Assembly (NCBI GenBank): GCA_037380845.1
Contig: JARRRI010000024.1
Coordinates: 1-35,599, forward strand
DNA length: 35,599 nucleotides
Reading direction: 5' to 3'
Origin: Candidatus Sulfobium sp.
Lineage (GTDB): Bacteria > Nitrospirota > Thermodesulfovibrionia > Thermodesulfovibrionales > UBA6898
Below the pieces are notes generated by a model, which was not told the DNA's origin, did no database searches, and saw nothing but the letters and a program-made list of their open reading frames with translations. Each line of letters opens with the position of its first letter. Position 1 is the stretch's first letter. The translations under genes were made by a program, and so were the position numbers. This document shows, piece after piece, positions 4,631-35,282 of this stretch.

Positions 4631-4839
4631 AGGCCGCGGAACTGAGGGAACTCTCGCAGGATGAACTCAAGGGAAAAGAGCAGGATATGAGAAGAGAGCT
4701 TTTCAATCTCAGGTTCCAGCAGGCCACGGGCGAGATAGAAAACCCGATGCGGATCCGCTCTCTCCGCAAAGATATCGCCAGGGTGTTGACGATTATGGCC
4801 GAAAAGAGCGGGCAACAGGGCGGCGCAGATGCGCGATAA
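4627..4839 (+). CDS. rpmC: 50S ribosomal protein L29
   Basis: [12 protein letters not shown]...[13 protein letters not shown]. Confidence 0.97.
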
Positions 4840-13194: not shown

Positions 13195-14232
13195 ATGAAT
13201 CTCAGGAAAAAAGGCTTTCAACTGCCTGACAAGTTCAGGTTTGATGAAGAGACTGTAAGCAGTACATATGGAAAGCTTGTCGTCGAGCCGCTGGAACGCG
13301 GCTTCGGGACTACTATCGGGAACGCACTCAGGAGGGTGTTGCTGTCTTCGCTTGAGGGGGCCGCGATTACCGCGGTGAAAATCTCCGGGGCGCTGCATGA
13401 ATTTTCGACGATCAACGGCATAAAGGAAGATGTTGTCAACATAATTCTGCGTATGAAAGGGCTGAGGTTCAGGTCCCACGCGGAAGAGGCGAAAGTCGGC
13501 ACTTTCAACGTGAAGGGTCCGGCGCGGGTTACGGGAGCCGACCTTAAGTGCGATCCCTCAGTGGAAATTCTGAACCCGGAGCAGGCCATCGCGACGCTCG
13601 ACAAGGGGGGGAATTTCGATGCCGAGGTGTACATAAGAAAAGGCAAGGGCTATGTCTCCTCCGAGCTGAACAAGGAAGACCTGCCGGTGGGCATGATCGC
13701 TGTCGATGCGGTCTTTACCCCTATCAGGAAGGTCAACTTCTGGGTGGAGAAGACCAGGGTGGGTCGTGAGACTGACTATGACAGGCTGATCATGGAGATC
13801 TGGACGGACGGGAGCGTGACACCCGAAAAGGCTGTTTCGCAGGCGGCCTCGATAATTATTGAACATATGGACCTCTTTATAGCCGAAGAGGAGGAGGACG
13901 AGTCCGCGTCCGCGGAGGAGCCGGCAGTTGCGCATTCTTCCGAGCAGCTCTACGCCTCGACTAACGACAATCTGTTCAAAAACGTGGACGAGCTCGAACT
14001 TTCCGTGAGATCATACAACTGTCTGAAGAACGCCAATATCAGGACAATAGCGGAACTGGTTCAGAAGAGCGAAACGGAGATGTTGAAGACCAAGAATTTC
14101 GGAAGAAAATCGCTCAACGAGATCAAGGAGATTCTGGGCAGGATGGGGTTGCACCTGGGGATGAAGGTCGACCTCGAAAACGTCCAGAACCAGGCGGTAC
14201 ATAGTGGAGGTATAGAACAAGATGCGTCATAA
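13195..14232 (+). CDS. rpoA: DNA-directed RNA polymerase subunit alpha
   Basis: EPLERGFGTTIGNALRRVLLSS...LELSVRSYNCLKNA...KNFGRKSLNEI; start at ATG 13195 after GGGAGG. Confidence 0.98.
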   Translation: MNLRKKGFQLPDKFRFDEETVSSTYGKLVVEPLERGFGTTIGNALRRVLLSSLEGAAITAVKISGALHEFSTINGIKEDVVNIILRMKGLRFRSHAEEAKVGTFNVKGPARVTGADLKCDPSVEILNPEQAIATLDKGGNFDAEVYIRKGKGYVSSELNKEDLPVGMIAVDAVFTPIRKVNFWVEKTRVGRETDYDRLIMEIWTDGSVTPEKAVSQAASIIIEHMDLFIAEEEEDESASAEEPAVAHSSEQLYASTNDNLFKNVDELELSVRSYNCLKNANIRTIAELVQKSETEMLKTKNFGRKSLNEIKEILGRMGLHLGMKVDLENVQNQAVHSGGIEQDAS

Positions 14233-14629
14233 AGTGGATGGAAGGCTGTTTGGAAGGACGGCAAATCAGAGGAAGGCGCTCCTGCGCGGACTGGTGACGG
14301 CACTGCTTGAGAATCAGCGGATAGAGACGACCGTTGCCAAGGCCAAAGAGACGAAGAGGATAGCCGAGAAGATGGTTACTTTCGGGATAAAGGGAGACCT
14401 GCATTCAAAGCGGCAGGTTCTGTCATATGTGACGGACAGAGCGGTAGCGTCAAAGTTGTTCAACGAGATCGCACCCCGTTTTTCCGGAAGGAACGGCGGC
14501 TACCTGAGGATCGTGCAGACGCGGAACCGCCTGAAGGATTCTGCCCCGATGGCGGTGCTTGAATTCATAGATTACGAGTCGGTAGAGGTGGCCAAAGGCA
14601 AGGCCGCGAAGGAAGAGAAGGCGAAATAA
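14222..14629 (+). CDS. rplQ: 50S ribosomal protein L17
   Basis: MRHK...IETTVAKAKE...RNGGYLRI...DSAPMAVLE. Confidence 0.98.
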   Translation: MRHKVDGRLFGRTANQRKALLRGLVTALLENQRIETTVAKAKETKRIAEKMVTFGIKGDLHSKRQVLSYVTDRAVASKLFNEIAPRFSGRNGGYLRIVQTRNRLKDSAPMAVLEFIDYESVEVAKGKAAKEEKAK

Positions 14630-14631
14630 TC

Positions 14632-14766
14632 GTGGGCAATCTCCTTATCGGCATCGTCATATTTGCTGTCTGGATAATCCTTCAGATTTTCGTTTTCCCC
14701 AGGATGGGGGTCACAACTTGAGGGGTCGATCCGAAGGTCCCGTGCAAGACCGATAAAAAGAAATAA
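14632..14766 (+). CDS. Candidate small single-TM selenoprotein (44 aa if TGA 14719-14721 is Sec; otherwise a 29-aa peptide ending at 14721)
   Basis: GTG 2 nt after rplQ stop; MGNLLIGIVIFAVWIILQIFVFPRMGVTT-(TGA)-GVDPKVPCKTDKKK-TAA; clean TM helix, open frame continues past TGA with a Cys; hairpin 3' of TGA. Confidence 0.5.
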
Positions 14767-14945: not shown

Positions 14946-14975
14946 TTGTCAGAAATTTTAAAGATGGGATATACT
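14946..14975 (+). promoter_or_regulatory. Sigma70-like promoter for smc
   Basis: TTGTCA-18 nt-TATACT, 35 nt upstream of smc ATG. Confidence 0.6.
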
Positions 14976-26233: not shown

Positions 26234-26980
26234 TCATTCTCTCAGTGTGCCTGCCGGCTCCTCTCTCCTCGCCTTCAGCAGGAGCAGGAGGGACATTCCC
26301 ATCAGGAAGAAGAAGCCCCCGGCCAAAGCAAAAGGAGCACCGGGTTCCCTGCTTAACTCGATCAGAGCGACAGGGTAGGGCGACTGACGGACTGTCCTTA
26401 CATATATACCGAAGCCGTCGTGAAAGGAAGGATCGTTGGGCCTGATGACATCCCTGGTGACCACCCTGTTTTTTCTGTAATAGGTGATATCCGCCGACCA
26501 GCCGGTAACGTATCCCGTGGGGTCGACAGTTGTCTTTATCCGGTCAAAAACGGCCTCCGCGCCGCCGGGCAGACGCAGGACGGAACCCTCATACGCATAG
26601 GCCATTCCCTTGTAACTGCCATAGGAACTGAGAAGGTGTGCGAGAAGTATGAACAGAAAGCCGACATGAACGACCTGGGGAGAAATTATCAGCAGCCAAT
26701 TCCTTGCCCCTCTTTTTTTCACCACTGAGTCTACGCTGCATGCGAGGGTATTGATTGTAATAAGAGAGAGGACGGCGATCGACAGCCAGAGCCACCACGT
26801 CAACCGAAAAGGGCTTCCCGTCAACCACCGGAACAACGGGAGGGTGTATAACTCCTGAAACTCCGGCCGGGACGGCATGATCAGGGACCCGTAAAACAGA
26901 ACGACCAGAAGCACCAGAAGGAGCCAGACCGTGGTCTTCAGGGAGAGGAAAGTCTTTAAGGCTTTCTTCAATAAATCCAT
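26234..26980 (-). CDS. Short ResB/CcsB-like cytochrome c biogenesis protein
   Basis: FLSLKTTVWLL...INTLACS...VVHVGFLFILLAH (TM His)...IRPNDP...REPG then C-terminal TM; directly downstream of ccsA. Confidence 0.78.
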   Translation of the reverse strand: MDLLKKALKTFLSLKTTVWLLLVLLVVLFYGSLIMPSRPEFQELYTLPLFRWLTGSPFRLTWWLWLSIAVLSLITINTLACSVDSVVKKRGARNWLLIISPQVVHVGFLFILLAHLLSSYGSYKGMAYAYEGSVLRLPGGAEAVFDRIKTTVDPTGYVTGWSADITYYRKNRVVTRDVIRPNDPSFHDGFGIYVRTVRQSPYPVALIELSREPGAPFALAGGFFFLMGMSLLLLLKARREEPAGTLRE

Positions 26981-26990
26981 TTTACACTCT

Positions 26991-27722
26991 TCAGAACGAA
27001 TGGGAACTCTTCATGAGCAGACTCACTCCGAGATAAGTGAACATCACTATTATGAAGCCCACGATCCCCAACAGGGCTGCCGGCCTGCCGGTCCATCTGG
27101 ACGTAAGGCGCGCGTGCAGATAAAGGCCGTAAAACAGCCAGAGTATTACGGTCCACAACTCCTTCGGTGTCCAGAGCCAGTAGGTGCCCCATGCCAGATA
27201 GGCCCAGATACCCCCGAACACCATGGCTGCCGAGAAAAGGAAGTATCCTACGACAATGGTCTTGTACTGAAGGAGTTCGCTCCGTTTCTCCCCTGCCGAC
27301 AAGAAAACTGCGCCCAGCACCGCCCCTATTCCAAACAGGGCGTATGAAAAGAAGGAAAGCGCCACGTGAGCCTCGAACCAGACGGTTTTCAGCACCGGGG
27401 GAAGGGGGGAACTGTGCGGCTTAAACGGCAATGAGAGGAAGAGGAATAAGAGCGACAGTGCCGTGACAGAATAAAAGAGCGGCCGGGAGTTTTCCTGTTT
27501 AAAGGTCAGGGGGAAACCAAAAAGGGCGATGGAGGCGGAAAGGAAAAAAAGGGTATCGTGGGGCCCCACAATGGGCATTCTCCCGAGCAGCATTCCCCGG
27601 TAGAACATATAGCCGGCCTGGATGAGAAAAGCCGGCAGGATGAAAAATTTGCGACGGCAACCAAGCGTATAGAAAGCGGCTGCCGCCAGCGTCAGCAGGA
27701 GAACCGGATTGCCCAACGACAT
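26991..27722 (-). CDS. ccsA: Cytochrome c biogenesis protein CcsA/ResC (System II heme lyase)
   Basis: PPVLKTVWFEAHV, GGIWAYLAWGTYWLWTPKE (WWD-like), YLHAR, YLGVS...SSHSF. Confidence 0.88.
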   Translation of the reverse strand: MSLGNPVLLLTLAAAAFYTLGCRRKFFILPAFLIQAGYMFYRGMLLGRMPIVGPHDTLFFLSASIALFGFPLTFKQENSRPLFYSVTALSLLFLFLSLPFKPHSSPLPPVLKTVWFEAHVALSFFSYALFGIGAVLGAVFLSAGEKRSELLQYKTIVVGYFLFSAAMVFGGIWAYLAWGTYWLWTPKELWTVILWLFYGLYLHARLTSRWTGRPAALLGIVGFIIVMFTYLGVSLLMKSSHSF

Positions 27723-27725
27723 CCC

Positions 27726-28322
27726 CTATTCCCCCGCCAGTCTTCTGAACCTCAGGAACATATAAAAACCTATCAGAAAAGGTTCAAACCTTATGACCAT
27801 ATTGTCGGTAAAGCCCCACAGGAACTGAGAGATGACGAGCCGGGGCATGCTTACCGTCTCAAATCCCCTGTTCATCAGTACTTCCGTCAGCTCTTTTACT
27901 TCGAGAGAGAATACGTAGAGCAGATGAACGCCGAAAAGGACCAGAAGGGCCTCTGCGTAAGCCCTTTTCCTCCGGCGCAAAAAGAGGAACAGTCCACCCA
28001 TTACCGCAAACGTCAGAGGTGCGTTGAATGTATAGTTCGAAATCGTGACGGGGATGTCAATCAGCATTCCGGTGTTGCCGGAGAGAGGAGAAAAAGTGGC
28101 CATAATTACATCGCCTTTCCTCTCCAGTCCGTCGAGTTTAACGTCTTTGACTCCGCTGACGATCCAGGATGCCGTCAGGGTTACGCCGTGACCATAATAG
28201 TCCTTTACCTGTATCCAGGCAAGGAGGCCGACAAAATAGACCAGGAGGAAGATGCCCACGGCTATTGCCGCGGACGGCTTACTAGGAGGCCGCACCGGGT
28301 TTCGCATAGCGGAGATAGACAA
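27726..28322 (-). CDS. Exosortase-associated membrane protein (start may be 28307)
   Basis: About 4 TM segments, topology parallel to the upstream exosortase, no Cys; overlaps the exosortase 3' end. Confidence 0.6.
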   Translation of the reverse strand: MSISAMRNPVRPPSKPSAAIAVGIFLLVYFVGLLAWIQVKDYYGHGVTLTASWIVSGVKDVKLDGLERKGDVIMATFSPLSGNTGMLIDIPVTISNYTFNAPLTFAVMGGLFLFLRRRKRAYAEALLVLFGVHLLYVFSLEVKELTEVLMNRGFETVSMPRLVISQFLWGFTDNMVIRFEPFLIGFYMFLRFRRLAGE

Positions 28323-28842
28323 AGAAGAGTCCGAGGGAGATGGCGATCATAAGTCCCTGTGCCACATAGATGTGGATATACTCAAAGAGGCTCCTGTAAT
28401 GTATCCCTGAGTAGGCCAGACCGACGATGCGAAAAATGTTGACGATCTGCAAAACCACGAAGCCTGCCAGCACCCCGAGAAGCCGCTTCTTCCATGTCGA
28501 GGGAAAGGCGACTACGGCGACGGAGTATATCATCACGGCTTCAAGCCCGTTGCATCCGAATTTCACATCGAGAGAGATTGCCGGCAGCTGTAAAACCGAA
28601 TTATGGACAACACAGGGGATGCTCACAACCCCGAGGATCCAGGCGGTGACAAGAACGACCCCCCTTGTATACATACCGTTTACGTCTATTATCTTCTGCA
28701 GCGGGGTGTAGCCGATTATAAAGAAGAACGTTCCCATCAGGACCAGGTATATGAGAGCGAAGCGCCTTATGCTGATATAATTGAGGCCGGACTTTTTTTC
28801 TACCGGCCCCTTTTGCCAATTTTTTGTCTTCTTTCTGCCCAT
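28282..28842 (-). CDS. Exosortase/archaeosortase-family protein (exosortase H-like)
   Basis: Cys-Arg-His triad in the expected contexts: VKFGCNGLEA, VNIFRI, FEYIHIY; AFPSTWKKRLLG; ~4 TM; start at ATG 28842. Confidence 0.88.
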   Translation of the reverse strand: MGRKKTKNWQKGPVEKKSGLNYISIRRFALIYLVLMGTFFFIIGYTPLQKIIDVNGMYTRGVVLVTAWILGVVSIPCVVHNSVLQLPAISLDVKFGCNGLEAVMIYSVAVVAFPSTWKKRLLGVLAGFVVLQIVNIFRIVGLAYSGIHYRSLFEYIHIYVAQGLMIAISLGLFFVYLRYAKPGAAS

Positions 28843-28854
28843 GATCCAGACTCT

Positions 28855-28884
28855 ATTATACAACAACCGCGCGGCGGTCGTAAA
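28855..28884 (-). promoter_or_regulatory. Sigma70-like promoter for the exosortase-ccsA-resB unit
   Basis: Minus strand TTTACG-18 nt-TATAAT; ATG 12 nt downstream of the -10. Confidence 0.55.
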
Positions 28885-35192: not shown

Positions 35193-35282
35193 GGAGGGGT
35201 GGCCGAGCGGTTGAAGGCGACGGTCTTGAAAATCGTTGTAGGGGCGACTCTACCGTGAGTTCGAATCTCACCCCCTCCGCCA
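35193..35282 (+). tRNA. tRNA-Ser (anticodon TGA)
   Basis: GGAGGGG/CCCCTCC acceptor stem, discriminator G + CCA, anticodon arm ACGGT-CTTGAAA-ATCGT, long variable arm GTAGGG..CTCTAC, GTTCGAATC T-loop; 90 nt. Confidence 0.96.

Follow-up and report, generated by a model that had tools for sequence, protein, structure and literature searches.

Organization of the locus

The window, a stretch of 35,599 nucleotides from a Candidatus Sulfobium genome (contig JARRRI010000024.1), carries behind the last ribosomal gene of an operon a short frame which is interrupted by one in-frame TGA and predicted to encode a membrane selenopeptide. The gene name rplQ is taken from an earlier note on this DNA and from features of the sequence. 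The parts of the locus are:

14222..14629, plus strand: rplQ (ribosomal protein L17), last ribosomal gene of the operon; context, outside the family
14617..14621, plus strand: GAAGG, a weak Shine-Dalgarno-like site overlapping the rplQ 3' end and preceding the GTG by 10 nt; seen in the sequence, function putative
14632..14766, plus strand: predicted 44-codon single-pass membrane selenoprotein gene, GTG to TAA; from sequence and comparison
14638..14706, plus strand: transmembrane helix, residues 3-25, predicted N-out, C-in from AlphaFold2 and charge flanks
14719..14721, plus strand: UGA very probably read as selenocysteine (U30), from TGA invariance and Cys codons in homologs
14736..14751, plus strand: SECIS-like stem-loop GGUC/GACC with loop CCGUGCAA; from comparison
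14743..14745, plus strand: Cys38, candidate partner thiol (U-x7-C), encoded inside the hairpin loop; from the sequence

The GTG at 14632 lies 2 nt past the rplQ TAA (14627-14629), the TGA occupies 14719-14721, the TAA 14764-14766 and the lone Cys codon (14743-14745) stands eight codons past the TGA, exactly as the earlier note had described. The single transmembrane helix that it had proposed is also predicted by AlphaFold2, which on a 47-row alignment (mean pLDDT 73) gave one helix (3-25) and an unstructured tail of low confidence. Net charge is higher after the helix than before it in 46 of the 47 sequences, with means of -0.7 before and +3.3 after, and from these charge flanks the tail is predicted to be cytoplasmic. 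A conserved W-x2-L-Q-x4-P-[RK]-x-G-x2-T motif marks the end of the helix, and the start codon sits exactly 29 codons before the TGA in 30/30 loci. The nearest titled relatives, 83% identical, belong to the Thermodesulfovibrionales (Nitrospirota).

The next gene downstream begins 245 nt later. A sigma-70-like site, TTGTCA-18-TATACT, is found at 14946-14975 (plus strand) before an smc-like gene, one such site being present where 0.9 are expected by chance. Elsewhere in the window, a run of membrane-protein genes beside a TPR protein occupies 26234-28866 (minus strand), genes which we take to resemble cytochrome c biogenesis and exosortase-type genes, and a tRNA gene at 35193-35279 (plus strand) is the sole Rfam match.

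Codon 30 and the reading frame beyond it

Homologous loci from Nitrospirota were read at 70 places and 69 were kept. The one dropped, L058 (G141), is a TGC-bearing match after a yidC-like gene which has no in-frame start; it was rejected as a chance match and stands outside the counts. L057, with a run of N in its tail, was kept in the 69-locus counts and excluded from the hairpin test, the Cys-position and codon counts and the tree. Codon 30 is TGA in 69/69 of these loci and in 61/61 of a second, overlapping Nitrospirota set, and the homologs with TAA or TAG at this position that would speak against selenocysteine number 0/69 and 0/61 in the two overlapping sets. In the same loci the rplQ stop is TGA in 29, TAG in 20 and TAA in 12 cases (n=61), and the final stop of the peptide gene itself is TAA in 27, TAG in 27 and TGA in 15 of the 69; because an ordinary stop would drift as these two do, codon 30 does not appear to be one. 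Among related genomes, 52/61 match at E 0.004 or better, each match containing one TGA, and a divergent copy in G049 that the profile missed likewise follows rplQ and has the TGA, the hairpin and a terminal Cys.

Beyond the TGA, 13-31 further codons can be read in frame at 69/69 loci, and the other two frames close before 13 codons in 9/69 and 44/69. Exactly one Cys is present in 63/69 tails, none in 5 and two in 1 (tails without Cys also occur in 2/30 Acidobacteriota loci), and a Cys codon falls within the first 16 codons at 61/69 loci in frame versus 7 and 9 out of frame. This residue is encoded in the hairpin loop in 29/68 loci and at the distal lysine-rich end in 34/68, where the codons are TGC (18) and TGT (17). 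Across the family U and C are 4, 7 or 12-14 residues apart, a looser spacing than an enzyme site would lead one to expect. When the tail is left out of the alignment for a tree of 59 loci, the Cys position changes 8-10 times on it by parsimony, 2-3 of these changes being forced by well-supported branches. Since RNA structure alone would not retain a Cys codon outside the hairpin, the tail seems to be selected as protein too. Codons +1 to +5, on the other hand, show little third-position bias: in the spacer after the TGA, length and frame are held more tightly than the sequence. The region beyond the TGA, where an absence of conservation would have spoken against recoding, is thus constrained both as RNA, by the hairpin, and as protein, by the open frame with one Cys.

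Among 1.84 billion protein representatives, 732 match the family at E 0.001, and of the best 150 of these, 122 have column 29 as their last, whereas 14 go on with Cys and 7 with Trp, the Trp forms probably being gene-caller choices. The supposition of the earlier note that the gene falls below gene-calling thresholds does not hold in this form, as the front half of 29 residues is frequently annotated as a gene (the 122 of the best 150). Searching with a profile built from the Cys forms yielded 1244 proteins, and among the 106 new ones listed, 76 have Cys at column 30, mostly as C-x4-C; named sources of Cys forms are a Myxococcales and a Planctomycetaceae genome, both annotated 'hypothetical protein'. 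The DNA of 78 metagenome loci reads TGC in 56 and TGT in 22 at this column, counts which show existence and not frequency, the search pattern having required Cys. The profiles of the Sec and the Cys form align at 99.5% probability, with U passed as C, so that column 30 matches by construction. With TGA in the Nitrospirota loci and natural TGC/TGT forms aligned to it, the expectation that homologs carry TGA or Cys at position 30 is borne out, and the alignments identify codon 30 as a Sec/Cys position. Four homologs (P0011, P0072, P0102, P0220) have C, R or G at column 30 and a tail that starts with AVP and lacks a second Cys, which suggests either that some lineages have lost the reactive residue or that the sequences contain errors. 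The Atlas holds one cluster of 123 members without a name. In NCBIfam 20.0 and Pfam there is no model that matches the peptide, the 47 Sec members or the Cys members; no PDB sequence matches below E 0.1, and plasmids gave no match.

The SECIS-like hairpin

The consensus for bacterial SECIS elements comprises a loop of 3-9 nt with G in its first two positions, a stem of >=4 pairs, a spacing of 16-37 nt and an energy of <= -7.5 kcal/mol (PMC13188914). A simplified form of our own of that consensus, at -4 kcal/mol or better and distinct from bSECISearch, was applied to all copies. Such a hairpin is present in 101/128 TGA copies (Nitrospirota 45/68, Desulfobacterota 26/30, Acidobacteriota 30/30) versus 10/36 dereplicated Cys copies and 120/954 ordinary TGA stops, and 222/1351 internal Cys codons of the host pass the same test. 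In 41/68 Nitrospirota loci the loop of the best hairpin begins 19-20 nt after the UGA. By these counts the hairpin goes with the TGA form, and at the family level it agrees with the SECIS consensus. Stem letters change on both sides in 73 cells versus 33 in shuffles and at 4/4 pairs, with the reservation that a register slid by one column scored higher (0.58 versus 0.44 for the named register) because loop lengths differ.

The copy in the window is a poor representative. Of the fold drawn in the earlier note, the GGUC/GACC stem around CCGUGCAA stands, with the loop G at 14742 indeed 21 nt after the UGA; the lower AUC/GAU stem does not, as it brings the energy to -3.9 kcal/mol versus -4.8 for the 4-bp hairpin alone. 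A competing fold exists as well, the main competitor being GGGGUC/GGUCCC (-6.5) rather than the GAUC/GGUC pairing (-1.8) named there. The hairpin lies where it should and its loop sequence is of the right kind, but the loop is, as noted there, no textbook match, its G being third in the loop and the stem reaching -4.8 against the limit of -7.5 kcal/mol. The four pairs have a pairing probability of 0.28, and the fold is no better than shuffles (z -0.45 to +0.90), single-sequence folding being uninformative here; the evidence that rises above chance is the comparative one. Three congeners have U at 14740, which gives a fifth pair and a conforming loop, CGUGCA, so that the window copy is one base away, and the hairpin of the host selD has the loop CGUGC, the commonest loop type of the family. 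No SECIS control could be drawn from the HdrA and MvhD matches of the host, since neither contains an internal stop.

Selenocysteine machinery and distribution

The genes on which selenocysteine insertion depends, and whose presence the earlier proposal had made a point to confirm, are all found in the host genome: selA, an adjoining selB, selD with an in-frame TGA of its own and tRNA-Sec. Several other host frames contain in-frame TGA codons. Two paralogous frames, near 13401 of G000:C31 and near 4811 of G000:C96 (both minus strand), read U-P-x-C and share the same hairpin with loop CGGGAG 21 nt after the TGA; they are DsbC/DsbG-like and probable selenoproteins of known type. A frame near 68732 of G000:C13 (minus strand) reads Y-C-A-U-P with a hairpin 21 nt after the TGA and resembles rhodanese-like CxU selenoproteins, and a possible further selenoprotein is the 207-codon frame near 154640 of G000:C9 (plus strand), in which the TGA is followed by 58 further codons and, after 17 nt, by a hairpin. 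Two formate dehydrogenase alpha-like genes (G000:C29:36573-37307 and C13:49022-49813) also have an in-frame TGA, the C13 copy reading C-A-R-L-U-H with a strong hairpin.

A profile search matched 109/401 genomes of the phylum Nitrospirota, 105 in the class of the host and 4 weakly outside it, and the gene was found in 100/132 sampled genomes of the order. Two more phyla were searched, which we take to be Desulfobacterota (from G422, a Desulfatiglandales record) and Acidobacteriota (from G425, Thermoanaerobaculia). In the former 136/301 genomes match and 141/143 matches contain TGA, though the query was built from Cys proteins; in the latter 93/301 genomes match, 94/94 matches with TGA. Thirty loci were read in each: codon 30 is TGA in 30/30 from Desulfobacterota, with Cys at +5 in 27 and +6 in 3, and in 30/30 from Acidobacteriota.

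Carriage of the gene follows the Sec machinery, in counts that include one unpublished genome (G749, selA-positive, no match). Of the Acidobacteriota, 91/229 selA-positive versus 2/72 selA-negative genomes have the gene (P = 5e-11, overstated since the genomes are related); both exceptions have selB, so that 93/93 carriers possess selA or selB, and the other 70 selA-negative genomes include 0 carriers. In Desulfobacterota selA is found in 281/301 genomes, 7/20 selA-negative ones carry the gene, all 7 with selB over the cut-off, and 0/10 genomes without both selA and selB carry it. G010, a 99% complete genome from the family of the host, is without selA, selB and tRNA-Sec and has no such gene after rplQ; three of its congeners have selA and the gene. 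In the genomes checked, which are drafts and kin, so that absence means not found in those searched, the putative Sec-encoding TGA form occurs only with Sec machinery. The converse does not apply: in genus g25 selB is present and the gene unmatched in 14/14 genomes, hence Sec use does not require the peptide gene. In two g25 genomes that were checked (L264, L265), a tRNA-like sequence directly follows rplQ, then an rplT-like gene, and the peptide gene is absent there. As selB is nearly universal among close relatives (59/61), it discriminates little. In G554, a genome without a selA match, a single contig carries two selB-like matches that exceed the cut-off (G554:C19:91285-92403 and 103087-104979).

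Gene neighbourhood

Proximity to rplQ, found within the stretch taken in 61/69 Nitrospirota loci with a stop-to-start gap of -8 to +5 nt in 55/61, is on present comparisons restricted to the lineage of the host; rplQ is nearby in 0/30 Desulfobacterota loci. At 7/10 non-rplQ loci examined in the order of the host, a secG-like gene precedes the peptide gene. Such housekeeping neighbours suggest borrowed expression.

Neighbours were scanned at 36 Cys loci (94/102 chosen ORFs), 30 Desulfobacterota loci (122 ORFs) and 30 Acidobacteriota loci (108/140 ORFs). Thiol- or sulfur-related ones occur, as raw counts, at 17/36, 11/30 and 11/30 loci, and include thioredoxins, CcdA, YgaP-like TM proteins, DUF302, TauE, rhodanese, NrfD, a persulfide dioxygenase-like fusion, a CoA-disulfide reductase-like enzyme and DsrC with DsrE; such a neighbour is missing from about 60% of the 96 loci, and as a clue to function this neighbourhood is a lead. 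A stand-alone zf-HC2 protein adjoins the gene at 14/36 Cys loci. In a recurring cluster of Cys forms (L212, L201, L231, L219, L218, L220) the zf-HC2 protein and the peptide are often joined by a YgaP-like TM protein, and at its end lies a divergent protein resembling cytochrome bd subunit I, which in L220 also has a cytochrome c domain fused to it.

Proposed function and alternative readings

Given a host with Sec machinery, a codon 30 that is never TAA or TAG and a constrained region past the TGA, the proposal of a 44-residue membrane selenopeptide is supported, and as far as sequence can decide it, the gene almost certainly encodes Sec. Ribosomes finishing rplQ would reinitiate 2 nt downstream, and SelB with Sec-tRNA would bind the hairpin 18-19 nt past the UGA, leading to insertion of Sec. 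The peptide would lie in the inner membrane with its short N-terminus outside and its lysine-rich tail inside, where U30, directly below the membrane, could join with the lone Cys of the tail in a reversible selenenylsulfide, to be re-reduced by thioredoxin-type proteins; a membrane partner may be bound through the conserved helix face. The position after rplQ would provide steady expression and imply no ribosomal role. The reading that we favour is thus a redox or sulfur relay tethered to the membrane, whose most likely task would be the handling of thiols or of sulfane sulfur. That U and C constitute a redox-active pair is probable; that sulfane sulfur in particular is handled has somewhat less than even odds.

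A bolder reading, held tentatively at a probability of about 0.35, is that of a minimal membrane selenol/thiol relay, an independent counterpart of SELENOK/SELENOS, by which electrons or sulfane sulfur would pass between thioredoxins of the cytoplasm and small sulfur-handling proteins of the membrane. The family would be among the most widespread bacterial selenoproteins, missed because its members have only 43-60 residues, and the partner Cys would have changed place several times, from the loop of the SECIS to the end of the tail or back, because a single RNA stretch has to be recoding signal and active site at once.

The same two residues could instead bind a soft metal (Cu, Hg, As, Zn), making the selenoprotein a membrane-anchored chaperone or sink without redox cycling. 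The C-x4-C and extra Cys of some tails would fit this, as would ArsR, RND efflux parts and zinc-finger proteins among the neighbours, and the variable spacing would suit two peptides sharing one ion. Each chain, however, offers only two ligands, thioredoxin, CcdA and sulfur-transfer proteins make up most of the neighbours that recur, and the Pfam hits of the neighbours include two MerR-family regulators but no heavy-metal ATPase, copper chaperone or mer structural gene, so that metal binding in place of redox cycling is unlikely. Distinctly improbable is a selenium-dependent switch, in which the cell makes forms of both 29 and 44 residues and adjusts a membrane partner or the downstream gene through their ratio: although conservation is highest in the 29-residue part, which could enter the membrane alone, and the window copy has a weak hairpin with a competing fold, Cys forms, which cannot truncate, are common, the downstream genes vary (the next one here being the gene 245 nt away), and genomes without Sec machinery have no gene at all instead of keeping a 29-codon form.

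Two further readings dispense with Sec altogether. A plain membrane peptide of 29 residues ending at the TGA, with a hairpin that is RNA of another role, is the form that databases mostly hold (the 122 of the best 150), and the poorly conserved tail sequence with its near-absent third-position bias at codons +1 to +5 would accord with it; against this stand the invariant TGA, the in-frame Cys, the Cys homologs and the link to selA/selB, and the hairpin has no U run and no terminator-like site was found, which together render this explanation very improbable. Decoding of UGA as Trp or Gly by an alternative genetic code could appeal to the seven W forms at column 30 among the best 150 representatives, yet 954 long host ORFs end at TGA and the aligned natural residues are mostly Cys, so that it is scarcely credible.

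With a family so frequent in the order of the host and in the two further phyla missing from the 119-family table and NCBIfam 20.0, the selenoproteomes of sulfate reducers and acidobacteria have probably been counted one family too low. The peptide, with its 44 residues, is within reach of chemical synthesis, so that Sec and Cys can be compared directly in their chemistry at the surface of a membrane, nature supplying pairs of the two forms.

Comparison with known systems

The family is widespread and uncatalogued in NCBIfam 20.0 and the 119-family selenoprotein table, from which it is absent by motif or description (PMC13188914); Haft and Tolstoy 2025, Haft and Gwadz 2023, Deng et al. 2026 or supplements, and BSepDB Table S2 could list it. 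Literature searches for a small membrane selenoprotein with rplQ and for CMSGAC gave no hit. The catalogued KCU-star (NF033934), dual CXXC (NF041197), UXX-star (NF041114/NF041211) and HesB-like proteins are also short and truncated at the UGA by gene callers, and their models gave no hit on 47 Sec or 14 Cys members at E 0.1. In the 119-family table none of them has U-x4-C, U-x7-C or U-x12-14-C after a membrane helix (PMC13188914). Thioredoxin-like UxxC/CxxU proteins differ from the peptide, which has one helix only and a spacing of 4, 7 or 12-14. Several family members lie inside sulfane-sulfur detoxification clusters with rhodanese, persulfide dioxygenase, TauE, CoA-disulfide reductase-like protein and YgaP (e.g. 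L169, L173, L305); the peptide differs from the enzymes of such clusters by having no catalytic domain, and the window has no such neighbours.

The layout of a single helix with a Sec-bearing tail, predicted to be cytosolic from charge, is shared with SELENOK/SELENOS, with no claim of homology. The peptide, presumably less than half their length, has its Sec four residues past the helix and 14 from the end, whereas theirs is third from the C-terminus; as 13-31 residues follow Sec in the family, in place of the last few, we do not file it there. SELENOK/SELENOS possess one transmembrane helix, carry Sec in a C-terminal part that faces the cytosol, and lack a CxxU motif (PMC9344019).

The mechanism of recoding is already known. 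Known SelB/SECIS selenoprotein genes, represented in the host by selD and a formate dehydrogenase-like gene, share with the present one the in-frame UGA, the hairpin downstream, Cys homologs and co-occurrence with sel genes (PMC13188914). The peptide is set apart from them by its length of only 44 residues and by a post-Sec tail of which nearly all is SECIS-coding sequence, a clean case of one sequence that would be under selection for RNA structure and for protein together.
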